Source: a virus (lineage: Duplodnaviria; Heunggongvirae; Uroviricota; Caudoviricetes). Taken from it: a stretch of 25,915 nucleotides of DNA. Position 1 is the stretch's first letter; every line of letters begins with the position of its first letter. The notes below the pieces were generated by a model that saw only the letters and a list, made by a program, of their open reading frames with translations, had not been told where the DNA came from and did not search any database. Positions 5,776 through 25,915 of this stretch are shown here, piece by piece. The stretch spans positions 1 through 25,915 of IMG/VR virus record IMGVR_UViG_2671180841_000012, one strand, 5' to 3'. Both the position numbers and the translations under genes were made by a program.

Positions 5776-5991
5776 GTAAAAACACAACGTGATTTGATAT
5801 GGCATTGAATGGCTTATGCGGAGCAGTTATGGGGCAGCAGAAGGTCAATAGCATGCTGAATTAGAAGGCTAAATGCTATTGAGTGACTAGCATGTCGGTA
5901 AGGACAGCCGTTTGATCCGGGTCATAAAAGGCCATCCATTTAGTCTAATAAAATCATTGCGGGTAACCTTATGTCGACGCATAATTCGTCT

Positions 5992-6066: not shown

Positions 6067-6077
6067 TTTGAAGCATA

Positions 6078-6669: not shown

Positions 6670-6688
6670 GGCGAGGCGGGGAAAGCAC
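6670..6688. other. cos site (P2-type 19-nt cohesive end)
   Basis: Sequence GGCGAGGCGGGGAAAGCAC matches the P2 cohesive-end sequence as I recall it, in the expected place just upstream of Q. Its presence internal to the element fits a prophage permuted from att. Confidence 0.6.
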
Positions 6689-6857
6689 TGCGCGCTGGCG
6701 GTGGTGCTGATTTTATTTTTTCAGCGTCTGAGCGCGTCGTGATGGCGTTTAGATTGTTCGCCGGGGCGTTGGTGTGTCTGCGGGCTGTTTTGTGCGGTGG
6801 TGAGCGTGTGAGGGCGTGATGGCGGGGTGTAAAAAAGCCGCCCGCAGGCGGCGATGT

Positions 6858-9664: not shown

Positions 9665-9837
9665 GAATACCTCGCCGTGATGAATACACGGCAAGGCTAC
9701 TGAGTCGCGCCCCGCGATTCGCTAAGGTGCTGTTGTGTCAGTGATAAGCCATCCGGGACTGATGGCGGAGGATGCGCATCGTCGGGAAACTGATGCCGAC
9801 ATGTGACTCCTCTAATCACTATTCAGGACTCCTGACA

Positions 9838-10692
9838 ATGGCAAAAAAAGTCTCAAAATTCTTTCGTATCGGCGTTGAGGGTGACACCTGTGACGGGCGT
9901 GTCATCAGTGCGCAGGATATTCAGGAAATGGCCGAAACCTTTGACCCGCGTGTCTATGGTTGCCGCATTAACCTGGAACATCTGCGCGGCATCCTGCCTG
10001 ACGGTATTTTTAAGCGTTATGGCGATGTGACCGAACTGAAGGCCGAAAAGATTGACGATGATTCGGCGCTGAAAGGCAAATGGGCGCTGTTTGCGAAAAT
10101 CACCCCGACCGATGACCTTATCGCGATGAACAAGGCCGCGCAGAAGGTTTATACCTCAATGGAAATTCAGCCGAACTTTGCCAACACCGGCAAATGTTAT
10201 CTGGTGGGGCTGGCCGTCACCGATGACCCGGCAAGCCTCGGTACGGAATACCTGGAATTCTGCCGCACGGCAAAACACAACCCCCTGAACCGCTTCAAAT
10301 TAAGCCCTGAAAACCTGATTTCAGTGGCAACGCCCGTTGAGCTGGAATTTGAAGACCTGCCTGAAACCGTGTTCACCGCTCTGACCGAAAAGGTGAAATC
10401 CATTTTTGGCCGCAAACAGGCCAGCGATGACGCCCGTCTGAATGACGTGCATGAAGCGGTGACCGCTGTCGCTGAACATGTGCAGGAAAAACTGAGCGCC
10501 ACTGAGCAGCGCCTCGCTGAGATGGAAACTGCCTTTTCCGCTCTTAAGCAGGAGGTGACTGACAGGGCGGATGAAACCAGTCAGGCATTCAGCCGCCTGA
10601 AAAACAGTCTCGACAACACCGAAAGTCTGACCCAGCAGCGCCGCAGCAAGGCCACCGGCGGTGGCGGTGACGCCCTGATGACGAACTGCTGA
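9838..10692 (+). CDS. O: Capsid scaffolding protein (P2 gpO-like)
   Basis: ORF 9772..10692; start placed at MAKKVSKFF (9838), giving 284 aa; C-terminal region looks coiled-coil-like. Confidence 0.85.
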   Translation: MAKKVSKFFRIGVEGDTCDGRVISAQDIQEMAETFDPRVYGCRINLEHLRGILPDGIFKRYGDVTELKAEKIDDDSALKGKWALFAKITPTDDLIAMNKAAQKVYTSMEIQPNFANTGKCYLVGLAVTDDPASLGTEYLEFCRTAKHNPLNRFKLSPENLISVATPVELEFEDLPETVFTALTEKVKSIFGRKQASDDARLNDVHEAVTAVAEHVQEKLSATEQRLAEMETAFSALKQEVTDRADETSQAFSRLKNSLDNTESLTQQRRSKATGGGGDALMTNC

Positions 10693-10750
10693 CCGGCGTC
10701 AGCCAGTCCGGGAAAACCTTCACGATTAACCCTTAATTTCAGGAAAAACT

Positions 10751-11824
10751 ATGCGCCAGGAAACCCGCTTTAAATTTAATGCCTACCTGTCCCGTGTTGC
10801 CGAACTGAACGGCATCGACGCCGGTGATGTGTCGAAAAAATTCACCGTTGAAACGTCGGTCACCCAGACCCTGATGAACACCATGCAGGAGTCCTCTGAC
10901 TTTCTGACCCGCATCAACATTGTGCCGGTCAGCGAAATGAAAGGGGAAAAAATTGGTATTGGTGTCACCGGCTCCATCGCCAGCACCACCGACACCGCCG
11001 GTGGCACCGAGCGTCAGCCGAAGGACTTCTCGAAGCTGGCGTCAAACAAGTACGAATGCGACCAGATTAACTTCGATTTTTATATCCGCTACAAAACGCT
11101 GGACCTGTGGGCGCGTTATCAGGATTTCCAGCTCCGTGTCCGTAACGCCATTATCAAACGCCAGTCCCTTGATTTAATCATGGCCGGTTTTAACGGCGTG
11201 AGGCGTGCCGAAACCTCTGACCGCAGCAGTAACCCGATGCTGCAGGATGTGGCGGTCGGCTGGCTGCAGAAATACCGCAATGAAGCCCCGGCGCGCGTGA
11301 TGAGCAAGGTCACTGACGAGGAAGGGCACACCACCTCTGAGGTTATCCGCGTGGGTAAGGGCGGTGATTATGCCAGCCTTGACGCACTGGTGATGGATGC
11401 GACCAACAACCTGATTGAACCTTGGTATCAGGAAGACCCTGACCTTGTGGTGATTGTGGGGCGTCAGCTACTGGCGGACAAGTATTTCCCCATCGTCAAT
11501 AAGGAGCAGGACAACAGCGAAATGCTGGCCGCTGACGTCATCATCAGCCAGAAACGCATCGGTAACCTGCCGGCGGTACGCGTCCCGTACTTCCCGGCGG
11601 ATGCGATGCTCATCACGAAGCTGGAAAACCTGTCCATCTACTACATGGATGACAGCCATCGCCGCGTGATTGAGGAAAACCCGAAACTCGACCGCGTGGA
11701 GAACTACGAGTCAATGAACATTGATTACGTGGTGGAAGACTACGCCGCCGGTTGTCTGGTGGAAAAAATCAAGGTCGGTGATTTCTCCACACCGGCTAAG
11801 GCGACCGCAGAGCCGGGAGCGTAA
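10751..11824 (+). CDS. N: Major capsid protein (P2 gpN-like)
   Basis: 357-aa ORF preceded by AGGA; O-N-M order. Confidence 0.88.
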   Translation: MRQETRFKFNAYLSRVAELNGIDAGDVSKKFTVETSVTQTLMNTMQESSDFLTRINIVPVSEMKGEKIGIGVTGSIASTTDTAGGTERQPKDFSKLASNKYECDQINFDFYIRYKTLDLWARYQDFQLRVRNAIIKRQSLDLIMAGFNGVRRAETSDRSSNPMLQDVAVGWLQKYRNEAPARVMSKVTDEEGHTTSEVIRVGKGGDYASLDALVMDATNNLIEPWYQEDPDLVVIVGRQLLADKYFPIVNKEQDNSEMLAADVIISQKRIGNLPAVRVPYFPADAMLITKLENLSIYYMDDSHRRVIEENPKLDRVENYESMNIDYVVEDYAAGCLVEKIKVGDFSTPAKATAEPGA

Positions 11825-11827
11825 CCG

Positions 11828-12571
11828 ATGACGAGTCCCGCACAGCGCCACATGATGCGGGTCTCGGCAGCGATGACCGCGCAGCGGGAAGCCGCCCCGC
11901 TGCGACATGCAACTGTCTATGAGCAGATGCTGGTTAAGCTCGCCGCAGACCAGCGCACACTGAAAGCGATTTATTCAAAAGAGCTTAAGGCCGCGAAAAA
12001 ACGCGAACTGCTGCCGTTCTGGTTGCCGTGGGTGAACGGCGTGCTGGAGCAGGGCAAAGGTGCACAGGATGACATTCTGATGACGGTCATGCTGTGGCGT
12101 CTGGATACCGGCGATATTGCCGGTGCGCTGGAGATTGCCCGTTATGCCCTGAAGTACGGTCTGACCATGCCGGGTAAACACCGCCGCACCCCGCCGTACA
12201 TGTTCACCGAGGAGGTGGCGCTTGCGGCCATGCGTGCTCACGCTGCCGGTGAGTCTGTGGATACCCGCCTGCTGACGGAGACCCTTGAACTGACCGCCAC
12301 GGCTGACATGCCTGATGAAGTGCGCGCAAAGCTGCACAAAATCACCGGTCTGTTTCTGCGTGACGGTGGTGATGCCGCCGGTGCGCTGGCTCACCTGCAA
12401 CGTGCGACACAGCTCGACTGTCAGGCAGGCGTCAAAAAAGAGATTGAACGACTGGAGCGGGAGCTGAAACCGAAGCCGGAGCCGCAGCCCAAAGCGGCCA
12501 CCCGTACCCCGCGTAAGACCCGGAGCGTGACACCGGCAAAACGTGGACGCCCGAAAAAGAAAGCCAGTTAA
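11828..12571 (+). CDS. M: Terminase endonuclease/small subunit (P2 gpM-like)
   Basis: 247-aa ORF 3 nt after N; basic Lys/Arg/Pro-rich C-terminal tail. Confidence 0.85.
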   Translation: MTSPAQRHMMRVSAAMTAQREAAPLRHATVYEQMLVKLAADQRTLKAIYSKELKAAKKRELLPFWLPWVNGVLEQGKGAQDDILMTVMLWRLDTGDIAGALEIARYALKYGLTMPGKHRRTPPYMFTEEVALAAMRAHAAGESVDTRLLTETLELTATADMPDEVRAKLHKITGLFLRDGGDAAGALAHLQRATQLDCQAGVKKEIERLERELKPKPEPQPKAATRTPRKTRSVTPAKRGRPKKKAS

Positions 12572-12670
12572 CAACCGAATGCGCCCCGCGCCAGGGCGGC
12601 ACGCCGGTCAGTGAGGGTGAATCACCTGACGCTGTACCGGCGTCCACCGCCCGACTTTTCAGAGGTAGTC

Positions 12671-13180
12671 ATGATGACGCTGATTATTCCGCGAAAGGAG
12701 GCTCCCGTGTCCGGTGAGGGTACGGTGGTCATCCCGCAACCGGCAGGCGACGAGCCGGTGATTAAAAACACGTTCTTTTTTCCCGATATCGACCCGAAGC
12801 GCGTCCGGGAACGTATGCGCCTTGAGCAGACCGTCGCCCCCGCCCGTCTGCGTGAGGCCATCAAGTCAGGCATGGCGGAGACGAATGCGGAGCTGTACGA
12901 GTACCGCGAACAGAAAATTGCCGCCGGTTTTACGCGTCTGGCGGACGTCCCGGCGGACGACATCGACGGTGAAAGCATCAAGGTTTTTTACTACGAGCGC
13001 GCCGTGTGTGCGATGGCGACCGCGTCGCTTTATGAGCGTTATCGCGGCGTGGATGCCAGTGCGAAAGGCGACAAAAAGGCCGACAGCATAGACAGCACCA
13101 TTGATGAGCTGTGGCGGGATATGCGCTGGGCGGTGGCGCGTATCCAGGACAAGCCGCGCTGCATCGTGAGTCAAATCTGA
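12671..13180 (+). CDS. L: Head completion protein (P2 gpL-like)
   Basis: ORF 12611..13180; start placed at MMTLIIPRKEAP (12671), giving 169 aa; stop overlaps the X start (TGATG). Confidence 0.8.
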   Translation: MMTLIIPRKEAPVSGEGTVVIPQPAGDEPVIKNTFFFPDIDPKRVRERMRLEQTVAPARLREAIKSGMAETNAELYEYREQKIAAGFTRLADVPADDIDGESIKVFYYERAVCAMATASLYERYRGVDASAKGDKKADSIDSTIDELWRDMRWAVARIQDKPRCIVSQI

Positions 13181-13383
13181 TGAAGACCTTTGCGCTACAG
13201 GGCGACACGCTCGACGCCATTTGTGTCCGGTATTACGGGCGCACTGAGGGCGTGGTTGAGACCGTGCTCGCCGCAAATCCGGGACTGTCTGAACTGGGTG
13301 CGGTGCTGCCACACGGCACCGCCGTCGAACTGCCCGACGTTCAGACCGCGCCCGTGGCTGAAACTGTCAATCTGTGGGAGTAA
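13180..13383 (+). CDS. X: Tail protein X (LysM-like)
   Basis: 67-aa ORF from the ATG at 13180 (MKTFALQGDTLDAICVRYYG...); the track ORF 13111..13383 overlaps L and is an over-extension. Confidence 0.8.
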   Translation: MKTFALQGDTLDAICVRYYGRTEGVVETVLAANPGLSELGAVLPHGTAVELPDVQTAPVAETVNLWE

Positions 13384-13386
13384 CGC

Positions 13387-13668
13387 ATGACAGCAGAAGA
13401 AAAAAGCGTCCTGTCGCTTTTCATGATTGGGGTGCTGATTGTTGTCGGCAAGGTGCTTGCCGGTGGTGAACCCATCACCCCGCGTCTGTTTATCGGGCGC
13501 ATGTTGCTCGGTGGTTTTGTCTCGATGGTTGCCGGTGTTGTTCTGGTGCAGTTTCCTGACCTGTCACTGCCTGCGGTGTGCGGCATCGGCTCCATGCTGG
13601 GTATCGCCGGTTATCAGGTGATTGAGATTGCCATTCAGCGCCGTTTTAAGGGCAGGGGGAAACCGTAA
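13387..13668 (+). CDS. Y: Holin (P2 gpY-like)
   Basis: 93-aa ORF with hydrophobic membrane-spanning segments; first gene of the lysis cassette. Confidence 0.8.
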   Translation: MTAEEKSVLSLFMIGVLIVVGKVLAGGEPITPRLFIGRMLLGGFVSMVAGVVLVQFPDLSLPAVCGIGSMLGIAGYQVIEIAIQRRFKGRGKP

Positions 13669-14165
13669 TGCCGGTAATTAACACGCACCAGAATATCGCC
13701 GCCTTTCTCGACATGCTGGCCGTGTCCGAAGGGACGGCGAATCATCCGCTGACGAAAAACCGGGGCTATGACGTGATAGTCACCGGACTGGACGGGAAGC
13801 CGGAAATTTTCACCGACTACAGTGACCACCCGTTCGCGCATGGCCGACCGGCGAAGGTGTTTAACCGTCGCGGTGAAAAATCCACGGCCTCCGGTCGCTA
13901 TCAGCAGCTTTACCTGTTCTGGCCGCATTACCGCAAACAGCTTGCCCTGCCGGATTTCAGTCCGTTGTCACAGGACAGACTCGCCATTCAGTTGATCCGC
14001 GAACGCGGTGCGCTGGATGACATCCGGGCGGGGCGCATTGAGCGCGCCATTTCACGCTGTCGCAATATCTGGGCGTCCCTGCCGGGTGCCGGTTACGGTC
14101 AGCGTGAGCATTCACTGGAAAAACTGGTCACCGTCTGGCGTACCGCCGGCGGCGTACCGGCTTAA
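13668..14165 (+). CDS. K: Endolysin (P2 gpK-like)
   Basis: 165-aa ORF immediately after the holin (TAATG overlap). Confidence 0.85.
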   Translation: MPVINTHQNIAAFLDMLAVSEGTANHPLTKNRGYDVIVTGLDGKPEIFTDYSDHPFAHGRPAKVFNRRGEKSTASGRYQQLYLFWPHYRKQLALPDFSPLSQDRLAIQLIRERGALDDIRAGRIERAISRCRNIWASLPGAGYGQREHSLEKLVTVWRTAGGVPA

Positions 14166-14179
14166 ACGGAGTAAACACC

Positions 14180-14605
14180 ATGAAGAAATTATCCCTTTCA
14201 CTGACGCTGAACGTGTCGCTGGCGCTGATGCTGGCACTGTCCCTGATTTACCCGCAGAGCGTGGCCGTTAATTTTGTCGCCGCCTGGGCGATTATGGCGA
14301 CGGTTATCTGTGTGGTTGCCGGTGGTGTCGGCGTGTATGCCACGGAGTATGTACTGGAACGCTACGGGCGGGAGCTGCCGCCGGAATCGCTGGCCGTGAA
14401 GATTGTCACGTCGCTGTTTTTGCAGCCGGTGCCGTGGCGCAGACGGGCGGCGGCTCTGGTAGTGATGGTGGCGACGTTTATCTCGCTGGTCGCTGCCGGG
14501 TGGATTTTTACTGCGCTGATTTATCTCGTGGCGTCGCTGTTTTTCCGGCTGATACGCACGGCCTGCCGTCAGCGTCTTGAGGGGCGGGAACTATGTCAAA
14601 GCTGA
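14180..14605 (+). CDS. lysA: Lysis regulatory membrane protein LysA
   Basis: 141-aa ORF with several hydrophobic segments, preceded by GGAG; follows the endolysin as in P2. Confidence 0.75.
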   Translation: MKKLSLSLTLNVSLALMLALSLIYPQSVAVNFVAAWAIMATVICVVAGGVGVYATEYVLERYGRELPPESLAVKIVTSLFLQPVPWRRRAAALVVMVATFISLVAAGWIFTALIYLVASLFFRLIRTACRQRLEGRELCQS

Positions 14606-15018
14606 TGATTGCACTGGTCGTGTTGTTATCGCTGGCGGTGGCGGGGCTGTTTCTGGCGAAGCATGAAAACGCCAGACTGCGCGCCTCACTGGACAGGGCG
14701 AACAACGTCGCCAGTGAACAGCAGGCGACTATCTCCATGCTGAAAAATCAGCTTCATGTTGCCCTCTCAAGGGCAGACAAAAACGAGCTGGCGCAGGTGG
14801 CACTGCGTCAGGAACTGGAGAACGCCGCGAAGCGTGAAGCACAGCGCGAGAAAACCATCACGAGGTTACTCAATGAAAACGAAGATTTTCGCCGCTGGTA
14901 TGGTGCTGACCTGCCTGATGCTGTGCGCCGGTTGCACCAGCGCCCCGCATGCACCGACGCCAGTGATTGTCGCCAACGCCTGCCCGAAAGTGAGCCTTTG
15001 CCCGATGCCGGGCAGTGA
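14593..15018 (+). CDS. lysB: Rz-like inner-membrane spanin LysB
   Basis: 141-aa ORF with an N-terminal transmembrane segment (MIALVVLLSLAVAGLFLA) and a charged helical periplasmic part. Confidence 0.8.
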   Translation: MSKLMIALVVLLSLAVAGLFLAKHENARLRASLDRANNVASEQQATISMLKNQLHVALSRADKNELAQVALRQELENAAKREAQREKTITRLLNENEDFRRWYGADLPDAVRRLHQRPACTDASDCRQRLPESEPLPDAGQ

Positions 15019-15163
15019 TCCGCAGACGAACGGCGATTTAAGTGCCGATATCCGGCAGCTTGAGAACGCGCTGGCACGCTGTGCCAGCCAGGTAAAAATG
15101 ATTAAACACTGTCAGGACGAAAACGATGCTCAAACCCGACAGCCTGCGCAGGGCGCTGACTGA
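14873..15163 (+). CDS. lysC: Rz1-like outer-membrane lipoprotein spanin LysC
   Basis: 96-aa ORF from the internal Met of track ORF 14756..15163; lipoprotein signal MKTKIFAAGMVLTCLMLCAGC with a lipobox ending in Cys, followed by a Pro-rich mature part; begins inside lysB in another frame. Confidence 0.75.
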   Translation: MKTKIFAAGMVLTCLMLCAGCTSAPHAPTPVIVANACPKVSLCPMPGSDPQTNGDLSADIRQLENALARCASQVKMIKHCQDENDAQTRQPAQGAD

Positions 15164-15593
15164 TGCCGTCACGGTGCTGAAAACCAGTCCAGAGATGCTT
15201 CGGATATTCGTGGATAACGGGAGTATTGCCTCCACGCTGGCGACGTCGCTGTCGTTCGAAAAGCGTTACACGCTCAATGTGATTGTGACCGACTTTACCG
15301 GTGATTTTGACCTGCTCATCGTGCCGGTGCTGGCGTGGCTGCGGGAAAATCAGCCCGACATCATGACCACCGACGAAGGCCAGAAAAAGGGCTTCACGTT
15401 TTATGCAGACATCAACAATGACAGCAGCTTTGATATCAGCATCAGTCTGATGCTGACCGAGCGCACGCTGGTCAGCGAGGTTGATGGTGCGCTGCATGTG
15501 AAGAATATCCCGGAACCCCCGCCGCCGGAGCCGGTCACCCGCCCGGTGGAGCTTTATATCAATGGCGAACTGGTGAGCAAGTGGGATGAATGA
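15126..15593 (+). CDS. R: Tail completion protein R
   Basis: 155-aa ORF in the P2 position after the lysis cassette. Confidence 0.8.
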   Translation: MLKPDSLRRALTDAVTVLKTSPEMLRIFVDNGSIASTLATSLSFEKRYTLNVIVTDFTGDFDLLIVPVLAWLRENQPDIMTTDEGQKKGFTFYADINNDSSFDISISLMLTERTLVSEVDGALHVKNIPEPPPPEPVTRPVELYINGELVSKWDE

Positions 15594-16038
15594 GTTTAAG
15601 CGTTTTGAAGACCGGCTGACCGGACTGATTGAATCGCTGTCACCGTCAGGGCGTCGGCGACTGAGTGCCGAACTGGCGAAACGTCTGCGTCAGAGTCAGC
15701 AGCGTCGGGTGATGGCACAGAAAGCCCCGGACGGCACACCCTACGCGCCACGTCAGCAGCAGAGCGCCAGAAAAAAGACCGGTCGCGTTAAGCGAAAAAT
15801 GTTTGCGAAACTTATCACCAGTCGTTTTTTGCATATCCGCGCCAGCCCTGAACAGGCATCAATGGAGTTTTACGGCGGAAAGTCACCGAAAATCGCCAGT
15901 GTGCATCAGTTTGGTCTGTCGGAAGAAAACCGGAAGGACGGTAAGAAAATTGATTATCCGGCGCGTCCTCTGCTCGGCTTTACCGGTGAGGATGTGCAGA
16001 TGATTGAAGAGATTATCCTGGCTCACCTCGACCGTTAG
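15586..16038 (+). CDS. S: Tail completion protein S
   Basis: 150-aa ORF overlapping the R stop (ATGAATGA). Confidence 0.8.
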   Translation: MNEFKRFEDRLTGLIESLSPSGRRRLSAELAKRLRQSQQRRVMAQKAPDGTPYAPRQQQSARKKTGRVKRKMFAKLITSRFLHIRASPEQASMEFYGGKSPKIASVHQFGLSEENRKDGKKIDYPARPLLGFTGEDVQMIEEIILAHLDR

Positions 16039-16104
16039 TTGTGCCATTCCAGACACCTCATCGTCACATTGCCGCCGGTATGACCCGGCGGCATCCTTCC
16101 CGTT

Positions 16105-16740
16105 ATGAACACTCTCGCAAATATTCAGGAACTCGCGCGCGCACTGCGCAACATGATCCGCACCGGCATTATCGTCGAAACCGACCTTAACGCCGGTCGC
16201 TGCCGTGTGCAGACCGGCGGCATGTGCACCGACTGGCTTCAGTGGCTGACCCATCGCGCCGGACGTTCGCGCACATGGTGGGCACCTTCCGTGGGGGAAC
16301 AGGTGCTGATTCTGGCCGTGGGCGGTGAACTCGACACGGCGTTCGTTCTGCCGGGGATTTATTCCGGCGATAACCCCGCGCCGTCTGCGTCGGCGGATGC
16401 CCTGCATATCCGTTTCCCTGACGGGGCGGTGATTGAATATGAACCCGAAACCAGTGCACTCACGGTAAGCGGAATTAAAACGGCCAGCGTGACGGCTTCT
16501 GATTCTGTTACTGCCACGGTACCGGTGGTCACGGTGAAATCGTCAACCCGTGTCACTCTGGACACACCGGAAGTGGTCTGCACTAACAAACTGACTACCG
16601 GCACGCTGGAAGTGCAGAAGGGCGGGACGATGCGCGGCAACATTGAACACACCGGCGGTGAACTCTCATCAAACGGTAAGGTACTGCATACCCACAAACA
16701 CCCCGGCGACAGCGGCGGCACAACCGGGAGTCCTTTATGA
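16105..16740 (+). CDS. V: Baseplate spike/hub protein V
   Basis: 211-aa ORF; its C-terminal motif HTHKHPGDSGGTTGSP resembles spike-tip proteins. Confidence 0.85.
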   Translation: MNTLANIQELARALRNMIRTGIIVETDLNAGRCRVQTGGMCTDWLQWLTHRAGRSRTWWAPSVGEQVLILAVGGELDTAFVLPGIYSGDNPAPSASADALHIRFPDGAVIEYEPETSALTVSGIKTASVTASDSVTATVPVVTVKSSTRVTLDTPEVVCTNKLTTGTLEVQKGGTMRGNIEHTGGELSSNGKVLHTHKHPGDSGGTTGSPL

Positions 16741-17084
16741 CAGCGCGTTATCTCGGAATGAATCGCAGTGATGGCCTGACGGTCACTGACCTTGAGCATA
16801 TCAGCCAGAGTATCGGCGATATCCTGCGCACACCGGTCGGCTCACGGGTGATGCGTCGTGATTACGGCTCGTTGCTGGCGTCAATGATTGACCAGCCGCA
16901 GACTCCGGCGCTTGAGTTGCAGATTAAGGTCGCCTGTTACATGGCAGTGCTGAAATGGGAACCCCGCGTCACCCTGTCATCCGTCACCACGGCGCGCAGT
17001 TTTGACGGGCGAATGACGGTCACGTTAACCGGTCAGCACAACGACACCGGCCAGCCACTTTCGTTAACCATCCCTGTGAGTTGA
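16737..17084 (+). CDS. W: Baseplate wedge protein W (gp25-like)
   Basis: 115-aa ORF overlapping the V stop (ATGA). Confidence 0.85.
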   Translation: MTARYLGMNRSDGLTVTDLEHISQSIGDILRTPVGSRVMRRDYGSLLASMIDQPQTPALELQIKVACYMAVLKWEPRVTLSSVTTARSFDGRMTVTLTGQHNDTGQPLSLTIPVS

Positions 17085-17088
17085 AACC

Positions 17089-17997
17089 ATGCCGATTATC
17101 GACCTGAACCAGCTACCCGCACCGGATGTGGTCGAGGAGCTGGACTTTGAAACCATTCTTGCCGAACGCAAGGCGACACTGATTTCCCTTTACCCGGAAG
17201 ACCAGCAGGAGGCGGTCGCCCGTACCCTGACGCTGGAATCTGAGCCTCTCGTCAAACTGCTGGAGGAAAATGCTTATCGTGAGCTTATCTGGCGTCAGCG
17301 TGTGAATGAGGCCGCACGGGCGGTGATGCTGGCCTGTGCCGCCGGTAATGACCTTGATGTGATTGGTGCCAATTACAACACCACGCGCCTGACTATCACC
17401 CCGGCAGATGATTCGACCATCCCGCCGACACCGGCAGTGATGGAGTCTGACACCGATTATCGTCTGCGTATTCAGCAGGCGTTTGAAGGTTTAAGCGTCG
17501 CCGGGTCGGTGGGTGCCTATCAGTATCATGGCCGCAGTGCCGACGGGCGTGTCGCGGATATTTCTGTCACCAGTCCGTCTCCGGCCTGCGTCACTATCTC
17601 TGTGCTGTCACGTGAAAATAACGGTGTCGCATCCGAAGACCTGCTGGCCGTGGTGCGTAACGCCCTGAATGGCGAGGACGTCAGGCCGGTGGCCGACCGC
17701 GTGACCGTGCAGTCTGCCGCCATCGTTGAATACCAGATAAACGCCACGCTTTACCTTTACCCTGGTCCCGAAAGCGAACCCATCCGCGCTGCCGCCGTGA
17801 AAAAACTGGAAGCGTATATCACGGCACAGCACCGGCTGGGGCGCGATATCCGTCTGTCTGCCATTTATGCCGCTTTGCATGTGGAAGGTGTGCAGCGTGT
17901 CGAACTGGCTGCACCGCTGGCTGACATCGTGCTCAACAGTACGCAGGCGTCTTTCTGTACCGAATACAGCGTCGTGACCGGAGGCTCGGATGAGTGA
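17089..17997 (+). CDS. J: Baseplate protein J
   Basis: 302-aa ORF in V-W-J-I order. Confidence 0.85.
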   Translation: MPIIDLNQLPAPDVVEELDFETILAERKATLISLYPEDQQEAVARTLTLESEPLVKLLEENAYRELIWRQRVNEAARAVMLACAAGNDLDVIGANYNTTRLTITPADDSTIPPTPAVMESDTDYRLRIQQAFEGLSVAGSVGAYQYHGRSADGRVADISVTSPSPACVTISVLSRENNGVASEDLLAVVRNALNGEDVRPVADRVTVQSAAIVEYQINATLYLYPGPESEPIRAAAVKKLEAYITAQHRLGRDIRLSAIYAALHVEGVQRVELAAPLADIVLNSTQASFCTEYSVVTGGSDE

Positions 17998-18601
17998 TTC
18001 GCGACTGCTGCCGACCGGCTCATCACTGCTTGAAGTTGCCGCCGCAAAAGCCTGTGCGGAAATTGAAAAAACGCCGGTCAGTATTCGTGAGCTGTGGAAC
18101 CCGGACACCTGCCCGGCAAATCTGCTGCCGTGGCTGGCGTGGTCATTTTCGGTTGACCGCTGGGATGATAAATGGCCGGAAGCGACAAAACGCGCTGTTA
18201 TCCGCGATGCGTATTTCATTCACTGCCATAAGGGCACTATAGGCGCAATCCGGCGTGTGGTGGAGCCGCTCGGCTATCTGATTGAGGTGAGGGAGTGGTG
18301 GCAGCTCAACGAGGAGCCGGGGACGTTCCGTATCGTTGTTGGCGTGCTTGAGCAGGGTATTACCGAAGAAATGTATCAGGAGCTGGAGCGCCTAGTTGCT
18401 GATGCAAAACCGGCAAGCCGCCATCTGACGGGACTGGCTATCAGTTTAAGTACAACCGGCAACATTTTTGCCGGTGCGGGATGCTATCACGGTGACGCCC
18501 TGACGGTTTATCCCTACACCCCGGAGGCCATTATTGTCGGAGGGGATTATTTCCCGGCCTCGGCCATTCATTTAATTGATAACCTGAGAGTAAACGCATG
18601 A
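17990..18601 (+). CDS. I: Baseplate protein I
   Basis: 203-aa ORF overlapping the J stop; P2 gpI position. Confidence 0.8.
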
Positions 18602-19758
18602 CAGTGAAATACTACGCCATTCTGACTAATCAGGGCGCAGCACGGCTGGCTAACGCGACGATGCTCGGCAGTAAGCTGAATCTGACGCAAATGGCCGTTG
18701 GTGATGCGAATGGTGTCTTGCCGACACCAGACCCGGCACAGACAAAACTGATTAACCAGAAACGCATCGCGCCGCTGAATCTTCTGAGTGTTGACCCGAA
18801 CAACCAGAGCCAGATTATTGCGGAGCAAATCATCCCTGAGAACGAGGGCGGATTCTGGATCCGTGAGATTGGGCTTTATGATGATGAAGGCGTACTCATT
18901 GCGGTGGCGAACTGCCCGGAAACGTACAAACCGCAGTTGCAGGAAGGCAGTGGTCGTACCCAGACTATCCGCATGATTCTGGTTGTCACGAATACCGAAG
19001 CTATCACGCTGAAAATCGACCCGTCGGTGGTACTGGCGACCCGTAAATACGTGGATGATGAAGTCCTGGAATTAAGGCTGTATGTGGATGACCAGATGAG
19101 AAACCACATTGCCGCACAGGATCCTCATACCCAGTATGCGCAGAAACATAATCCGACATTTACCGGAGAACCAAAAGCGCCGACGCCTGCCGCAGGAAAT
19201 AACACCACGCGGATTGCGACCACTGCGTTTGTTCAGGCCGCTATTACCGCTCTGATTAACGGTGCGCCAGCCACGCTGGACACACTGAAAGAAATTGCCG
19301 CAGCCATTAACAATGACCCGAAATTCAGTACCACCATTAACAATGCGCTGTCAGGTAAGCAGCCACTGGATGAGACGCTGACTCATTTGAGTGGAAAGGA
19401 TGTAGCTGGTCTTCTCGCATACCTTGGTTTGGGAGAAGCGGCAAAACGGAATGTGGGAACAGGGGAAAATCAGATACCTGATATGTCATCATATGCATCA
19501 GGTTCAGGCTGGCGAAAAATGCCAGATGGTTCAATTGAACAGTGGGGACGAATTCGTTTTCCTGGTGAACACGGGCCTGTATCCGCCAATGTTTCATTCC
19601 CGATTCCATTTACACAGACACCGGGCATTGTAATTGTGTGCGATGGTGGTTTCGGGGGCGGGAATATGTGGGGGGCGACCAACTGGAGCACTACCGGCTT
19701 CATAGCTCACTGCAATTATGGTCTTGAAGGTGGTGCGTTTTTCGCTAAGGGCTGGTAA
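18598..19758 (+). CDS. H: Tail fibre protein H (constant N-terminal part fused to invertible C-terminal variable part)
   Basis: 386-aa ORF; the N-terminal ~275 residues resemble the P2-type fibre shaft (MAVGDANG...[20 protein letters not shown]); the C-terminal ~110 residues lie beyond the crossover site at 19412-19437. Confidence 0.85.
19412..19437. repeat. hix/gix-like recombination site inside H (proximal end of invertible segment)
   Basis: TTCTCGCATACC-TT-GGTTTGGGAGAA: two 12-bp half-sites in inverted orientation around a 2-bp core (10 of 12 symmetric); 19421-19437 is the exact reverse complement of 21237-21253. Confidence 0.7.
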
Positions 19759-20201
19759 TGATGAAATATCTGTACGTAAACAACCTGGCATATCCTTACG
19801 AACTTCAGTCTCTTTATGTTGAAAAAGGTGAATGGCCTGAAGAAAAAGGTGTTGATATAGACGAAGTAATTTTCAGGGAATATTTCTATGACACACCACC
19901 AGAAGGAAAATACAGATGTGTTGGAGAAGATGGACTGCCTGCATGGGCAGATATTCCTCCACCAACACGTGAAGAACAAATTGCATCAGCCGAAACTAAA
20001 AAGCAGCAATTGATTAATCAGGCCAACGATTATATGAACAGTAGACAATGGGTTGGTAAAGCGGCTATTGGTCGTCTGAAAGGTGAGGAACTGGCGCAAT
20101 ATAATTTGTGGCTGGATTATCTGGACGCACTGGAGCTGGTCGATACTTCCAGTGCACCAGATATTGAATGGCCTACTCCTCCGGCAGTTCAGGCCAGATG
20201 A
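19758..20201 (+). CDS. G: Tail fibre assembly chaperone G
   Basis: 147-aa ORF overlapping the H stop (TAATG); C-terminal motif LDYLDA...DTSSAPDIEWP is shared with the minus-strand paralog. Confidence 0.8.
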   Translation: MMKYLYVNNLAYPYELQSLYVEKGEWPEEKGVDIDEVIFREYFYDTPPEGKYRCVGEDGLPAWADIPPPTREEQIASAETKKQQLINQANDYMNSRQWVGKAAIGRLKGEELAQYNLWLDYLDALELVDTSSAPDIEWPTPPAVQAR

Positions 20202-20784
20202 CATCCGGCGCGGTGCTGGTATCTGTTGCCGTCACCGCGTCAATGTAATCCAGCACCGTGTTAAGTCGGCTGGTTTCTGCCTGCGTCAGATTCCGTCCGG
20301 CCCGTAATTTCAGTTGAATCAGACTGATGGAAGCCATTGCAGTATCAATCAGCGACTGGCGTTGTGCTTCTGCTGCATCTACTGCGGCGCTATGCTGTGC
20401 ATCGGTATCCGTCACCCATTTCTCACCATCCCATTTATCGTATGGTGTTAACGGGGCGATAGTGGTTGTATTATCAGGGTAATCACCCGGAGCTGTGATT
20501 TCTTTTGATTCTCCTGTTTCGGTGCTAAAGACGATTTCACCGCGATGGTCTGGCACATATTCCCATGAGTTAAAATCTGCAGAACGGCAGATTGCATAAC
20601 CAGCCTTATGTGTAACTGGTGCATCTAAACAAGAACATGCCGGGATACCGACGCCAACCGTAAGATATTCAGTTGATGTGGAAATATATTCCCGCGTTTC
20701 TCCGTTGTAGTTGTAAACGGTAATGAAGCCAGCCTCTGTGGCAAATCCGTTTTCATCCAAAGTGATTTTTTTTGTGGTCATCAT
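20173..20784 (-). CDS. Alternative tail fibre assembly chaperone (G')
   Basis: 203-aa minus-strand ORF convergent with G, 3' ends overlapping by 29 bp; C-terminal LDYIDA...DTSTAPDVIWP marks it as a paralog of G. Confidence 0.75.
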   Translation of the reverse strand: MMTTKKITLDENGFATEAGFITVYNYNGETREYISTSTEYLTVGVGIPACSCLDAPVTHKAGYAICRSADFNSWEYVPDHRGEIVFSTETGESKEITAPGDYPDNTTTIAPLTPYDKWDGEKWVTDTDAQHSAAVDAAEAQRQSLIDTAMASISLIQLKLRAGRNLTQAETSRLNTVLDYIDAVTATDTSTAPDVIWPELPEE

Positions 20785-21257
20785 GCTGCCCTTACAATGT
20801 AGTTAAATGCAATGTTACGTGGCCTTGTTTCTGCTGATGTTCTTGCACTCCTGGATAAATCAAGTGTCACACCATAGTAACTAAATGCATTACCAGTTGA
20901 TGGAGCGGCATATTTAACCCCAGAACTAGAACCAACATTAAAAACTCCAGATGCTGAGGAAGCTGACCCCATAGTGTTATCAATCAGAGAACCCGTAACA
21001 TTTTGCATAGCGTCAAGTTGTTCGCTTAATAAAGCGCGTCCACTATCAACATCACGCCCGTCATCCCAGCCACGAATAAATTCACCTCGTAAATCAGGCA
21101 ATTTATTTGTCGGATAAGCCTTTGCCAGTTCCGGGTATTCTTCAGCAGAAAAAAACGCACCGTTGCATTTCAGCCAGCCTGTTGGCGGAGTGGTGGAAGG
21201 CCACGGAACAGGCACGCCAACGGGTAATGCCGAACCTTCTCCCAAACCAAGGTATAA
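20781..21257 (-). CDS. Silent alternative tail-fibre C-terminal cassette (Hv')
   Basis: Minus-strand reading frame ending at 20781 that enters at the distal crossover site with LYLGLGEGSALPVG..., parallel to H's [10 protein letters not shown]. The frame is the same relative to the core in both sites, so inversion would fuse H's constant part in frame. The track ORF runs on to 21434 but has no credible start there. Confidence 0.65.
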   Translation of the reverse strand, partial: LYLGLGEGSALPVGVPVPWPSTTPPTGWLKCNGAFFSAEEYPELAKAYPTNKLPDLRGEFIRGWDDGRDVDSGRALLSEQLDAMQNVTGSLIDNTMGSASSASGVFNVGSSSGVKYAAPSTGNAFSYYGVTLDLSRSARTSAETRPRNIAFNYIVRAA

Positions 21258-21262
21258 CAACA
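21237..21262. repeat. hix/gix-like recombination site (distal end of invertible segment)
   Basis: TTCTCCCAAACC-AA-GGTATAACAACA: left half-site and core are the exact inverted copy of the site in H; the right half-site is degenerate (about 6 of 12). Confidence 0.65.
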
Positions 21263-21415
21263 AATGACCAGAATACGGAATTGCAGCGTAACGCGCTGGA
21301 GTGCGCAGGATGTGAGCTGATTTTTGATATTGGCCTGTCCACGCTCTATAAAAAATTCCCCTCATCAGCGACAAAGAATAAATTGTGTCATCCCTTAGCC
21401 AACCGGGACAAATAG
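21251..21415 (+). pseudogene. Remnant of a Gin/Hin/Cin/Pin-family serine DNA invertase
   Basis: Plus-strand frame next to the distal site reads TNDQNTELQRNALECAGCELIF then jumps to DIGLSTLYKKFPSS...; these correspond to the N-terminal residues and the C-terminal DNA-binding end of Gin/Hin as I recall them. No start codon, no catalytic Ser (RVS absent), and ~140 internal codons missing. Confidence 0.7.
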
Positions 21416-21474
21416 CCTGACATCTCCGGCACAACTGAAAATATCACTCACCCATTAACCACGGAGTTAAACGG

Positions 21475-22665
21475 ATGAGTGACTATCATCACGGCGTGCA
21501 GGTGCTGGAGATTAACGACGGCACCCGTGTCATTTCCACCGTATCCACTGCCATTGTTGGCATGGTCTGCACGGCCAGCGATGCGGATGCGGAAACCTTC
21601 CCCCTCAATAAACCGGTGCTGATTACCAATGTGCAGAGCGCAATTGCAAAGGCCGGTAAAAAAGGCACGCTGGCGGCATCGTTGCAGGCTATCGCCGACC
21701 AGTCAAAACCGGTCACCGTTGTTGTGCGCGTGGAGGACGGCACCGGCGACGACGAAGAAACGAAACTTGCGCAGACCGTTTCCAATATCATCGGCACCAC
21801 TGACGAAAACGGTCAGTACACCGGACTGAAAGCCCTGCTGGCGGCAGAGTCGGTAACCGGTGTTAAACCGCGTATTCTTGGTGTGCCGGGACTGGATACC
21901 AAAGAGGTGGCTGTAGCACTAGCATCCGTCTGTCAGAAGCTGCGCGCTTTCGGGTATATCAGCGCATGGGGCTGTAAGACCATTTCCGAGGTGAAAGCCT
22001 ACCGCCAGAATTTCAGCCAGCGTGAGCTGATGGTCATCTGGCCGGATTTCCTCGCATGGGATACGGTCACCAGTACCACCGCCACCGCGTATGCCACCGC
22101 TCGTGCGCTGGGGCTGCGCGCTAAAATCGACCAGGAGCAGGGCTGGCATAAAACGCTGTCCAACGTCGGGGTGAACGGTGTTACCGGCATCAGCGCATCT
22201 GTATTCTGGGATTTGCAGGAGTCCGGCACCGATGCTGACCTGCTTAACGAGTCAGGCGTCACTACGCTGATTCGCCGCGACGGTTTCCGCTTCTGGGGTA
22301 ACCGTACCTGCTCTGATGACCCACTGTTTCTCTTTGAAAACTACACCCGTACCGCGCAGGTGCTGGCCGACACGATAGCTGAGGCGCACATGTGGGCGGT
22401 GGACAAGCCCATCACCGCAACGCTGATTCGCGACATCGTTGACGGCATCAATGCCAAATTCCGTGAGCTGAAAACAAACGGCTATATCGTGGATGGCTCA
22501 TGCTGGTTCAGCGAAGAATCCAACGATGCGGAAACCCTCAAGGCCGGAAAACTGTATATCGACTACGACTATACACCGGTGCCTCCTCTCGAAAACCTGA
22601 CCCTGCGCCAGCGTATTACCGATAAATACCTGGCGAATCTGGTCACCTCGGTTAACAGCAATTAA
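21475..22665 (+). CDS. FI: Tail sheath protein FI
   Basis: 396-aa ORF preceded by GGAG. Confidence 0.88.
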   Translation: MSDYHHGVQVLEINDGTRVISTVSTAIVGMVCTASDADAETFPLNKPVLITNVQSAIAKAGKKGTLAASLQAIADQSKPVTVVVRVEDGTGDDEETKLAQTVSNIIGTTDENGQYTGLKALLAAESVTGVKPRILGVPGLDTKEVAVALASVCQKLRAFGYISAWGCKTISEVKAYRQNFSQRELMVIWPDFLAWDTVTSTTATAYATARALGLRAKIDQEQGWHKTLSNVGVNGVTGISASVFWDLQESGTDADLLNESGVTTLIRRDGFRFWGNRTCSDDPLFLFENYTRTAQVLADTIAEAHMWAVDKPITATLIRDIVDGINAKFRELKTNGYIVDGSCWFSEESNDAETLKAGKLYIDYDYTPVPPLENLTLRQRITDKYLANLVTSVNSN

Positions 22666-22677
22666 GGAGCCTGACCG

Positions 22678-23196
22678 ATGGCAATGCCGCGCAAACTCAA
22701 GTTAATGAACGTCTTTCTGAACGGCTACAGCTATCAGGGCGTCGCGAAGTCCGTCACGCTACCAAAACTGACCCGTAAGCTCGAAAACTATCGCGGTGCG
22801 GGGATGAACGGCAGCGCACCGGTAGACCTCGGCCTTGATGACGATGCGCTGTCAATGGAGTGGTCGCTCGGTGGCTTCCCGGATTCGGTTATCTGGGAGC
22901 TTTACGCCGCAACCGGTGTGGATGCCGTACCGATTCGTTTTGCAGGCTCTTACCAGCGCGACGATACCGGCGAAACGGTGGCCGTCGAGGTGGTCATGCG
23001 TGGACGTCAGAAAGAAATCGACACCGGCGAGGGTAAACAGGGAGAAGACACCGAGTCGAAAATCTCCGTGGTCTGCACCTATTTCCTGCTGACGATGGAC
23101 GGTAAGGAGCTGGTCGAAATTGACACCATCAACATGATTGAGAAGGTGAACGGCGTCGACCGGCTGGAGCAACACCGCCGCAATATCGGCCTGTGA
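22678..23196 (+). CDS. FII: Tail tube protein FII
   Basis: 172-aa ORF preceded by AGGAG, directly after FI. Confidence 0.88.
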   Translation: MAMPRKLKLMNVFLNGYSYQGVAKSVTLPKLTRKLENYRGAGMNGSAPVDLGLDDDALSMEWSLGGFPDSVIWELYAATGVDAVPIRFAGSYQRDDTGETVAVEVVMRGRQKEIDTGEGKQGEDTESKISVVCTYFLLTMDGKELVEIDTINMIEKVNGVDRLEQHRRNIGL

Positions 23197-23251
23197 TTTT
23201 CATCCGGTCAGCCAGGCTGACCGGTAACCCCGATTCAGAAGTGAGAAAACC

Positions 23252-23527
23252 ATGAACAAAGAAAATGTCATTACCCTGGACAATCCGGTCAAACGTGGTG
23301 AGCAGGTTATCGAACAGGTCACGCTGATGAAACCCAATGCCGGGACGCTGCGCGGTGTCAGTCTGGCTGCGGTTGCAAACTCCGAAGTCGATGCACTGAT
23401 TAAAGTGCTGCCGCGCATGACGGCACCGATGCTGACCGAGCAGGAAGTCGCCGCGCTGGAACTGCCTGACCTTGTGGCGCTGGCCGGTAAGGTGGTCGGT
23501 TTTTTGTCGCCGAACTCGGTGCAGTGA
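23252..23527 (+). CDS. E: Tail assembly chaperone E
   Basis: 91-aa ORF between the tube gene and the tape-measure gene. Confidence 0.8.
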   Translation: MNKENVITLDNPVKRGEQVIEQVTLMKPNAGTLRGVSLAAVANSEVDALIKVLPRMTAPMLTEQEVAALELPDLVALAGKVVGFLSPNSVQ

Positions 23528-23679
23528 CGTTCCCGAAAAATCTCTCGGTCGATGACCTGATGGCGGATGTGGCAGTGATATTTCACTGGCCGCCATCAGA
23601 ACTGTATCCCATGAGCCTGACCGAACTCATCACATGGCGCGAAAAGGCGCTCCGGCGAAGCGGAAACACGAATGAGTAA
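23252..23679 (+). CDS. Tail assembly chaperone E+E' (-1 programmed frameshift product)
   Basis: Slippery heptamer T-TTT-TTG at 23500-23506 near the end of E; the -1 frame stays open from there to TAA at 23677-23679, overlapping the T start codon. Confidence 0.7.
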
Positions 23680-25915
23680 CAATGTAAAATTACAGGTATT
23701 GCTCAGGGCTGTTGACCAGGCATCCCGCCCGTTTAAATCCATCCGCACAGCGAGCAAATCGCTGTCGGGGGATATCCGGGAAACACAAAAATCACTGCGC
23801 GAGCTGAACGGTCAGGCGTCCCGTATTGAGGGATTTCGCAAGACCAGTGCACAGCTCGCCGTGACTGGTCATGCACTTGAAAAGGCACGGCAGGAGGCTG
23901 AAGCCCTTGCCACACAGTTTAAAAACACCGAACGTCCGACCCGTGCTCAGGCGAAAGTGCTGGAATCCGCAAAGCGTGCGGCGGAGGACTTACAGGCGAA
24001 ATATAACCGCCTGACGGATTCCGTTAAACGCCAGCAGCGGGAACTGGCCGCTGTGGGAATTAATACCCGCAATCTTGCACATGATGAGCAGGGACTGAAA
24101 AACCGTATCAGTGAAACCACCGCACAGCTTAACCGTCAGCGCGACGCGCTGGCGCGTGTCAGTGCGCAACAGGCAAAACTTAACGCAGTCAAACAGCGTT
24201 ATCAGGCCGGAAAGGAACTGGCCGGAAATATGGCCTCGGTGGGCGCTGCCGGTGTGGGGATTGCGGCGGCGGGAACGATGGCCGGAGTTAAGCTGCTGAT
24301 GCCCGGTTATGAGTTTGCGCAGAAAAACTCAGAATTGCAGGCCGTGCTCGGAGTGGCAAAAGACTCCGCCGAAATGACCGCACTACGCAAACAGGCGCGC
24401 CAGCTCGGCGACAATACCGCCGCCTCGGCGGATGATGCGGCCGGTGCACAGATAATCATCGCGAAAGCGGGTGGGGATGTTGATGCCATTCAGGCGGCAA
24501 CGCCGGTCACGCTGAATATGGCGCTGGCGAACCGCCGCACGATGGAAGAAAACGCCGCCCTGCTGATGGGGATGAAATCCGCCTTTCAGCTTTCAAACGA
24601 TAAGGTCGCTCATATCGGGGATGTTCTCTCCATGACGATGAACAAAACCGCCGCCGATTTTGACGGCATGAGCGATGCGCTGACCTATGCCGCACCTGTG
24701 GCAAAAAATGCCGGTGTCAGCATTGAAGAAACCGCCGCAATGGTCGGGGCGCTGCATGATGCAAAAATCACAGGCTCAATGGCGGGGACGGGAAGCCGTG
24801 CCGTGTTAAGCCGCCTGCAGGCACCGACGGGAAAAGCATGGGATGCACTCAAAGAGCTTGGCGTGAAAACCTCAGACAGCAAGGGAAACACCCGGCCAAT
24901 ATTTACCATTCTGAAAGAAATGCAGGCCAGTTTTGAGAAAAACCGGCTCGGTACTGCCCAGCAGGCTGAATACATGAAAACTATTTTCGGGGAGGAGGCC
25001 AGCTCAGCCGCCGCCGTGCTGATGACTGCCGCCTCAACCGGAAAGCTGGACAAACTGACCGCTGCGTTTAAAGCCTCAGACGGGAAGACCGCCGAGCTGG
25101 TAAATATCATGCAGGACAACCTAGGCGGTGACTTTAAAGAGTTTCAGTCCGCTTATGAGGCAGTGGGGACTGACCTGTTTGACCAGCAGGAAGGCGCGCT
25201 GCGTAAGCTCACGCAGACGGCCACAAAGTATGTGTTAAAACTCGACGGCTGGATCCAGAAAAACAAATCACTGGCGTCAACCATCGGCATCATTGCCGGT
25301 GGCGCGCTGGCGCTGACTGGCATCATCGGTGCCATTGGCCTCGTAGCCTGGCCGGTTATCACCGGCATCAATGCCATCATCGCGGCAGCAGGCGCAATGG
25401 GGGCAGTCTTCACGACGGTTGGCAGTGCTGTTATGACCGCCATCGGGGCTATTAGCTGGCCGGTTGTGGCCGTGGTGGCCGCAATTGTCACCGGGGCGTT
25501 GCTTATCCGTAAATACTGGGAGCCTGTCAGCGCATTCTTTGGCGGTGTGGTTGAAGGGCTGAAAGTGGCATTTGCGCCGGTGGGGGAACTGTTCACGCCA
25601 CTTAAGCCGGTGTTTGACTGGCTGGGTGAAAAGTTACAGGCCGCGTGGCAGTGGTTTAAAAACCTGATTGCTCCGGTCAAAGCCACTCAGGACACCCTGA
25701 ACAGTTGCCGTGACACGGGGGGCATGTTCGGGCAGGCACTGGCTGACGCGCTGATGCTGCCGCTTAATGCGTTCAACAAACTGCGCAGCGGTATTGACTG
25801 GGTACTGGAAAAACTCGGTGTTATCAACAAAGAGTCAGACACACTTGACCAGACCGCCGCCAGAACTCAAGCCGCCACGTATGGCAGCGGTGGTTATATT
25901 CCGGCGACCAGCTCT
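23672..25915 (+). CDS. T: Tail tape-measure protein T (3' end outside window)
   Basis: ATG at 23672 opens a frame with no stop through the window end (748 codons); N-terminal region is helical and Gln/Ala/Arg-rich, with Gly/Ala-rich hydrophobic segments later (IAGGALALTGIIGAIGLVAWPV). Absent from the ORF track only because it lacks a stop. Confidence 0.85.
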   Translation, partial: MSNNVKLQVLLRAVDQASRPFKSIRTASKSLSGDIRETQKSLRELNGQASRIEGFRKTSAQLAVTGHALEKARQEAEALATQFKNTERPTRAQAKVLESAKRAAEDLQAKYNRLTDSVKRQQRELAAVGINTRNLAHDEQGLKNRISETTAQLNRQRDALARVSAQQAKLNAVKQRYQAGKELAGNMASVGAAGVGIAAAGTMAGVKLLMPGYEFAQKNSELQAVLGVAKDSAEMTALRKQARQLGDNTAASADDAAGAQIIIAKAGGDVDAIQAATPVTLNMALANRRTMEENAALLMGMKSAFQLSNDKVAHIGDVLSMTMNKTAADFDGMSDALTYAAPVAKNAGVSIEETAAMVGALHDAKITGSMAGTGSRAVLSRLQAPTGKAWDALKELGVKTSDSKGNTRPIFTILKEMQASFEKNRLGTAQQAEYMKTIFGEEASSAAAVLMTAASTGKLDKLTAAFKASDGKTAELVNIMQDNLGGDFKEFQSAYEAVGTDLFDQQEGALRKLTQTATKYVLKLDGWIQKNKSLASTIGIIAGGALALTGIIGAIGLVAWPVITGINAIIAAAGAMGAVFTTVGSAVMTAIGAISWPVVAVVAAIVTGALLIRKYWEPVSAFFGGVVEGLKVAFAPVGELFTPLKPVFDWLGEKLQAAWQWFKNLIAPVKATQDTLNSCRDTGGMFGQALADALMLPLNAFNKLRSGIDWVLEKLGVINKESDTLDQTAARTQAATYGSGGYIPATSS

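Follow-up and report, generated by a model that had tools for sequence, protein, structure and literature searches.

Several invertible tail-fibre segments of phages and prophages have been described. In the G segment of Mu (S/U and S'/U', with the invertase Gin) and the C segment of P1 (with Cin), a shared scheme is found, in which a constant N-terminal part of the fibre is joined at the crossover site to alternative C-termini, each C-terminus is accompanied by a chaperone, and the gene for the invertase is found immediately outside the right site. The P segment of the e14 element of E. coli K-12 (stfP-tfaP/tfaE-stfE, with PinE) belongs to a lambdoid-type remnant and has a short constant fibre part, and PinQ of the Qin prophage inverts this segment in trans (PMC12529663). 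Related loci are known from P2-like prophages and phages, namely the prophages of enteropathogenic E. coli (EPEC) E2348/69, phage pro483, and the E. coli EA2 prophage, all of which carry an intact invertase of 197 aa. In EPEC, sequencing and PCR have shown that segments of this kind invert in P2-like prophages (PMC4272514), and at one EPEC locus there are three sites with three alternative C-termini. P2 itself has one tip (~285 aa), no inverted site, and no invertase.

The DNA analysed here, a stretch of 25,915 nt referred to below as the window, holds a P2-like prophage. After the integrase come the repressor, cox, replication gene A, portal, terminase, capsid, and lysis genes, the baseplate genes V-W-J-I, and then H and the sheath gene FI; the coordinates of the features discussed in the text are given in Table 1. 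A Pfam search placed a Tail_P2_I gene directly upstream of H, and with the sheath gene downstream this gives the order J-I-H-tfa-FI, which is supported by the annotation of a prophage in the E. coli MNCRE44 genome. The full P2-like late and early gene set is present across the window and matches the MNCRE44 annotation, with the exception of a disrupted invertase. The MNCRE44 prophage is near-identical to the one analysed here and was already public. An Rfam scan of the whole window gave no match.

Compared with the systems described above, the locus is an ordinary member of a long-known class of host-range switches that includes Mu G, P1 C, e14 P, and the segments of P2-like prophages, and the P2-like prophage very probably carries, inserted at the H-G position, an invertible tail-fibre module of the Din family (Gin/Cin/Pin type), of which H is a part. 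It shares gene order, shaft, and site with the loci of EPEC E2348/69, pro483, and EA2, and it shares with P2 gpH/gpG the PF12571 domain, the J-I-H-tfa-FI synteny, and the motif at which shaft and tip are joined. The four-gene convergent layout and the size of the segment (~1.8 kb) are those of the e14 P segment, but the constant part of the fibre in the window is a P2-type H, and PinE is intact in K-12, whereas the invertase in the window is a remnant. The features that set the locus apart are only mildly unusual: a degraded invertase, evidence of flipping in trans, and an unexplained deletion scar at the core of a crossover site.

Table 1. Prophage features discussed in the text, with their positions in the window
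Feature	Position	Strand	Description
Integrase	1-1011	-	
Tail-fibre gene H, ORF	18598..19758	+	386 aa
H constant part, codons 1-280	18598..19437	+	Baseplate-attachment domain (residues 1-150) and shaft, C-terminal LLAYLGLGE
Left crossover site	19419..19438		ATACC TT GGTTTGGGAGAAG; inside the H frame; encodes YLGLGE (residues 275-280)
Expressed tip 1, H residues 281-386 and stop (106 aa)	19438..19758	+	Conserved 16-residue linker, then predicted Gp53-like/R-pyocin-foot beta-sandwich (~residues 304-386)
Tip 1 tail-fibre assembly chaperone, 147 aa	19758..20201	+	Caudo_TAP PF02413, E=3e-33
Tip 2 tail-fibre assembly chaperone, 203 aa	20173..20784	-	Caudo_TAP, E=1.4e-32
Silent tip 2 cassette, 151 codons and stop	20781..21235	-	No start codon of its own; predicted collar domain, variable middle, conserved C-terminus RPRNIAFNYIVRAA
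Right crossover site	21236..21255		CTTCTCCCAAACC AA GGTAT
Gin/Pin-family serine invertase remnant, 53 codons	21254..21415	+	Residues 10-31 fused to 169-197
Sheath gene FI	from 21475		Downstream of H

The H shaft and the crossover junction

The initial annotation had described H as much shorter than its P2 counterpart and as P2-like only in its N-terminal ~275 residues. Both statements were borne out, with the similarity to P2 itself being modest. Canonical P2 H has 669 aa (NC_001895 12734-14743), against 386 aa for the protein studied here, and includes ~74 additional shaft residues. Residues 1-150 of H match the phage tail-collar fibre N-terminal domain (Pfam PF12571, E=2e-62). BLASTP aligned residues 26-258 to P2 H at 42% identity and, in a second and weaker segment, residues 175-280 to P2 H 246-364, and it found no alignment to P2 H beyond residue 280. 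Similarity to P2 H does not extend over the whole length of the protein, and H is not uniformly P2-like; a domain boundary lies at the crossover site, where the alignment stops. P2 H carries the joint motif as well (IEYLGLQE, residues 374-381). The tip that comes after it is similar to the variable part of Mu S (Sv), and the idea that the C-terminus of P2 H is of the collar/HxH kind proved wrong.

The junction between shaft and tip coincides with the recombination site, as had been proposed. The codons for LLAYLGLGE (19411-19437) overlap one arm of a perfect 20-nt inverted repeat, ATACCTTGGTTTGGGAGAAG (20/20 positions), and homology drops at residue 280. At up to 3 mismatches, the 18-nt core of the repeat has exactly two matches in the window and none in 100 shuffles, and when further crossover sites were sought in the window, as in a Min- or shufflon-like multi-site system, only these two were present. 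The site lies within the fibre ORF, and the constant N-terminal part joins either C-terminal part in frame, giving the 386-aa H or a 431-aa H'.

Judged from its sequence, the crossover site is of the Pin/Gin type. The two copies are in inverted orientation, show imperfect dyad symmetry, and fit the AAACC-NN-GGTTT core; their inner half-sites and core are perfect, and the central dinucleotide of the left site is TT (19424-19425). The core, TTGGTTTGGGAGAAG, is the same as that of e14 pix, and in the e14 P segment the inner half-site is likewise identical, this sequence encoding LGLGE there. The layout is the same as that of Mu gix, in which TTATCCAAAACC TC GGTTTACAGGAA encodes IQNLGLQE at the join between the constant and variable parts of S, equivalent to the junction in the window; the central dinucleotide is TC in Mu and TT in the window. 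The outer half of the right site is unlike that of its relatives because a deletion of ~90 bp begins directly after the central AA.

Comparison with related prophages shows a single shaft combined with many tips. Residues 1-280 of H are 97-100% identical in many peduovirus contigs, and the DNA homology of several peduoviruses ends at window position 19438, the last base of the left arm. Among 80 IMG/VR relatives of the constant part, the same 11-residue end of the shaft precedes at least six unrelated tip continuations (AAKRNVG..., GSALPVG..., GAPAIGVPFFWPS..., TINLARNAV..., AAKLPAISGS..., and ARYVIQRGAN...). Across residues 1-280, 29 relatives are at least 97.5% identical to H; beyond residue 280 their sequence is unrelated, is of the collar type, or matches at no more than 62% identity over a portion of the length, so that an identity of 98-100% is lost at this residue. 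The same tips are found on fibres with quite different N-termini as well, and there too the join is always at (N/Y)LGLGE. These observations suggest that the GLGE-coding site may serve, in addition, as a joint for the exchange of tip cassettes across phage families.

The invertase gene is complete in many of these relatives. A full-length copy lies ~1.7-3.9 kb downstream of the site in 28 IMG/VR relatives (~1.9-2.6 kb in most), and phage pro483 and the E. coli EA2 prophage have the same layout with their intact enzyme, that of pro483 (197 aa) being 78% identical to Mu Gin. pro483 shows 97% DNA identity to the window over positions 18000-19496, but its expressed tip is different. The H ORF runs off the end of the contig in 20 contigs, and 17 of these end within ~65 nt of the site, as would be expected if the sequenced culture contained the segment in two orientations or as several copies. 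In some IMG/VR contigs (L009, L023, and L041), the sequence folds back on itself at the right site, apparently as an artefact.

The two tips and their chaperones

Between the arms, in a segment of 1.8 kb, lie two convergent cassettes, each made up of a tip and its own Tfa chaperone. Domain searches of both tips, as had been called for in the initial annotation, agreed with its view that the two are unrelated: they returned different Pfam families, Gp53-like_C for tip 1 and Collar for tip 2, and the tips share no similarity with each other beyond the junction motif. The two chaperones are 39% identical to each other, over their C-terminal ~70 residues only.

Tip 1 is predicted to be a lectin-like domain of the Gp53-like or R-pyocin "foot" kind. 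Residues 307-374 match Gp53-like_C (Pfam PF21882, E=1.7e-6; 28.9 bits against a cutoff of 24.9), and sequence matches in the PDB were the R2 pyocin (6ct8) and the short tail fibre gp92 (9zd7; profile E=1.3e-5). The AlphaFold2 model, which is confident for the last ~85 residues only (tip residues ~40-125), has a seven-strand beta-sandwich at pLDDT 75-89. Its best PDB matches in Foldseek are the R1/R2 pyocin foot (6cxb, 6ct8, and 6cl6) and AP22 gp53 (4mtm), all with a probability score of 1.0 and a TM score of ~0.5, together with H-type lectins; sequence identity to the R-type pyocin foot is only 20-24%. None of the cultured phages in the phage collection has tip 1 at more than ~50% identity over most of its length. 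Many E. coli prophages nevertheless have tip 1 (1404 matches), for the most part in the silent cassette. The tip of e14 StfP gave no BLASTP match to tip 1, and the tip 1 chaperone is 62% identical to e14 TfaP over residues 56-147.

Tip 2, which is silent in the window, appears to be a collar tip of the T4 gp37/gp12 type, related to e14 StfE and HK97 Stf. It matches the Collar domain (Pfam PF07484, E=7e-15; 55.2 bits against a cutoff of 24) and, in the PDB, the short tail fibre 9cuy (E=5e-24), T4 gp37 (2xgf, E=6e-16), and gp12. Its identity to residues 159-320 of HK97 Stf is 63%, and that to e14 StfE is 57%. The variable middle of the tip is flanked by a conserved collar and a conserved C-terminal strand, and only the collar and the final ~55 residues align to 2xgf. 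Tip 2 is far shorter than T4 gp37 and gp12, and it contains no histidine and therefore lacks their HxH iron-binding needle. Its AlphaFold2 model, built from a 16-sequence alignment, has a pLDDT of 42, and the assignment of its fold comes from the sequence matches. The tip 2 chaperone is 87% identical to e14 TfaE, and its gene has ~95% DNA identity to HK97 tfa. The 151- and 203-codon silent ORFs are both intact, and inversion of 19439-21235 in silico fuses H codons 1-280 in frame to tip 2, giving H', the C-terminal end of which is NIAFNYIVRAA.

The layout of the locus had suggested tips like those of Mu, but these were ruled out by BLASTP, in which H and tip 2 gave nothing at E<0.01 against Mu S and S'. 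The variable parts Sv and S'v of Mu have no sequence similarity to the tips in the window, and at ~330 aa they compare with variable parts of 106 and 151 aa here.

The invertase remnant and the orientation of the segment

No functional invertase adjoins the segment. What remains has no promoter, ribosome-binding site, or ATG, and has lost codons 1-9, catalytic Ser9 among them, and codons 32-168. Alignment with pro483, EA2, LD27-1, and MNCRE44 defined two deletions. The internal one is an in-frame loss of 411 bp between two copies of CTGATTTTTGA, which removed residues 32-168. It is common to MNCRE44 and LD27-1. Its junction is present as one uninterrupted sequence in at least 23 complete E. 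coli genomes and had no match in IMG/VR, and RefSeq annotates the allele that carries it as a pseudogene. The other, of ~90 bp, took the promoter region, ribosome-binding site, ATG, and codons 1-9. It starts at the base following the central AA of the right site and exchanges 92 bp for a 7-nt filler, GGTATAA. Searches of 5426 complete E. coli genomes and of IMG/VR returned no copy of the junction that it created, which therefore looks recent and private. No template for the filler was found in the window. Action of the recombinase on a quasi-site, microhomology, and a nearby templated copy were considered as origins of the ~90-bp deletion, and no simple scheme fits.

The segment was found in both orientations when strains were compared. 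In MNCRE44, where the prophage is inserted next to cpxP, window positions 1-19438 are matched with 1 mismatch and positions 21258-25915 at 100% identity, but the segment at 19424-21255 is inverted, at 99.95% identity, and the 431-aa H' is annotated as a CDS. A second lineage with a dead invertase shows the same relationship: AR_0137 differs from Y5 only by inversion of the segment, and 005008, TL-14, and E-ge-1 share the orientation of AR_0137, whereas GYB01 and P50 share that of Y5. Since each of these two lineages with the dead allele includes both orientations, and the flanks are near-identical, at least one flip must have followed the internal deletion, unless that deletion arose repeatedly, and this points to an invertase acting in trans.

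The initial annotation had described the tip of H as swappable. This holds for the architecture, and for the segment as found inverted in MNCRE44, but not for autonomous flipping of the window copy, the invertase of which is dead. Lacking an invertase of its own, the window copy needs one in trans in order to flip. The Fis-dependent recombinational enhancers of the Hin, Gin, and Cin systems sit in the 5' region of the invertase gene. Of this region, codons 10-31 alone remain in the window, abutting the right site. With the outer half-site replaced and the enhancer region displaced to within a few base pairs of the site, even flipping in trans may therefore be impaired in this copy.

Interpretation and alternative readings

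In the orientation seen in the window, the late operon expresses H with the 106-aa Gp53-like/R-pyocin-foot tip, together with the 147-aa Tfa. After inversion, the shaft would instead carry the 151-aa collar-type tip, and the operon would include the gene for the 203-aa Tfa, a state found in the otherwise identical MNCRE44 prophage. The unrelated folds of the tips, and the behaviour of Mu, P1, and carotovoricin-type systems, suggest that the two tips bind different surface receptors, as the initial annotation had proposed, most likely LPS core or outer-membrane structures, and a lysate would therefore hold two host-range types. The window copy would be either locked as it now stands or open to flipping only when another prophage supplies a related invertase in trans; Pin-type enzymes recognise the same core.

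How this particular copy behaves can be read in two ways. It may be permanently locked with the Gp53-like tip, H then being a static mosaic gene and the second cassette a decaying passenger, and we regard this as a serious possibility that falls short of being probable. It is favoured by the reduction of the invertase to 53 codons that include neither a start codon nor the catalytic serine, by the alteration of the right outer half-site through the ~90-bp deletion from the central AA, and by the absence of the deletion junction from all the complete E. coli genomes and IMG/VR contigs searched. However, the silent ORFs are intact, the inner half-sites and core are perfect, two lineages with a dead invertase are seen in both orientations with near-identical flanks, and Pin-type enzymes act in trans (PMC12529663). 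Only tentatively can the locus be read as an orphan switch, in which the invertase has been lost, the segment is still flipped in natural populations by the Pin/Gin-type enzymes of other resident prophages, and the ~90-bp deletion with its 7-nt filler, which starts precisely at the dinucleotide where the right site is cleaved, is the scar of an aberrant event at the last flip that may have locked this copy.

Two further readings concern the locus as a whole. One, to which we give very little weight, is that the differences in orientation (the window against MNCRE44, AR_0137 against Y5) are an assembler's choice or an artefact, and that the mosaic arose only by homologous or illegitimate recombination at the conserved GLGE motif. 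Contigs do often break at the site, some fold back at the right site, and HK97 Stf and P2 H have the motif without any invertase; yet complete in-frame fibre genes in both orientations are present in finished genomes, and PCR has confirmed that such segments do invert in P2-like prophages (PMC4272514). An assembler, moreover, can choose an orientation only where there are reads for both, and such a choice would therefore itself imply inversion in the culture. It is similarly improbable that the switch serves the lysogenic host, with one fibre isoform blocking the adsorption of other phages, as is reported for the e14 StfE2 chimera. The silent cassette is indeed closest to e14 TfaE and StfE (87% and 57%) and has the same crossover core, and PinQ-driven inversion of e14 yields an anti-T2 protein (PMC12529663). 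Against such a role, the prophage has a full P2-like set of late and early genes apart from the invertase, and H lies in the late V-W-J-I-H-G operon. The late operon is silent in P2 lysogens.

Taken as an invertible tail-fibre module of the Din family, the locus has modest practical value. The residue 280/281 boundary is exact and could be used in the construction of chimeric P2-type fibres or tailocins, two small natural cassettes of tip plus chaperone have been identified, and the window and MNCRE44 form a natural pair that differs essentially in fibre orientation only and would be useful for receptor mapping. For the biology of these prophages, the locus mainly confirms the textbook mechanism in which host range is diversified by the flipping of tail-fibre tip cassettes, and the occurrence of dead-invertase lineages in both orientations hints at cross-talk between prophage invertases within one cell.

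The same prophage in strain MNCRE44

The window in its entirety (positions 1-25915) corresponds to a P2-like prophage adjoining cpxP in Escherichia coli MNCRE44 (locus L098, NZ_CP010876.1 4396339-4422339). Over 19.4 kb the two differ by a single mismatch, and a further 4.7 kb is 100% identical. Otherwise they differ only in the fibre segment, which is inverted, and in a deletion of approximately 90 bp at the right crossover site. Relative to MNCRE44, this deletion removed the invertase promoter together with the ATG and codons 1-9, leaving the 7-nt filler GGTATAA, the first five nucleotides of which bring the inverted repeat to 20/20. The deletion was found in no other searched genome.

A 1.1-kb stretch of low GC content (about 39-49%, versus about 55% elsewhere) is flanked by replication gene A and portal gene Q, where P2 has its accessory-gene hotspot. 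No ORF in this stretch reaches 90 aa, it has no Rfam match, and the MNCRE44 annotation shows no gene there.

Features of the window
Feature	Position	Strand	Remark
Low-GC stretch	5776-6857		
Longest ORF in low-GC stretch	6078-6344	-	88 aa
217-aa ORF	20781-21434	-	Spurious
102-aa ORF	21107-21415	+	Spurious
Deletion of ~90 bp relative to MNCRE44	21249-21258		Begins exactly past the right crossover site's central AA
Gin/Pin-family invertase remnant	21254-21415	+	53 codons; residues 10-31 joined to 169-197

Reading frames and contig structures at the right crossover site

Two ORFs from the mechanical listing that read through the right crossover site were rejected as spurious: the 217-aa ORF runs from invertase antisense sequence across the site into the silent tip, and the 102-aa ORF runs from tip antisense sequence across it into the invertase remnant. 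The name "integrase" is sometimes given in error to database homologues of read-through ORFs of this kind.

Three IMG/VR contigs (L009, L023, and L041) carry, after the right crossover site, the constant region of the tail-fibre gene H as its reverse complement in place of an invertase. Assembly at the inverted repeat probably produced this fold-back structure as an artefact.

Distribution of the dead invertase allele

The internal deletion in the invertase remnant is in frame and is bounded by two CTGATTTTTGA 11-mers. At least 23 complete E. coli genomes carry the resulting dead allele as a contiguous sequence. The allele is found in a second lineage of P2-like prophages, represented by loci L090-L095 and L097 in E. 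coli strains AR_0137, Y5, 005008, GYB01, TL-14, E-ge-1, and P50, where the invertible segment is 1.2 kb long and has a single gene for the tail-fibre assembly chaperone Tfa. The segment of this second lineage was seen in both orientations, in strains whose flanks are 99.9% identical.
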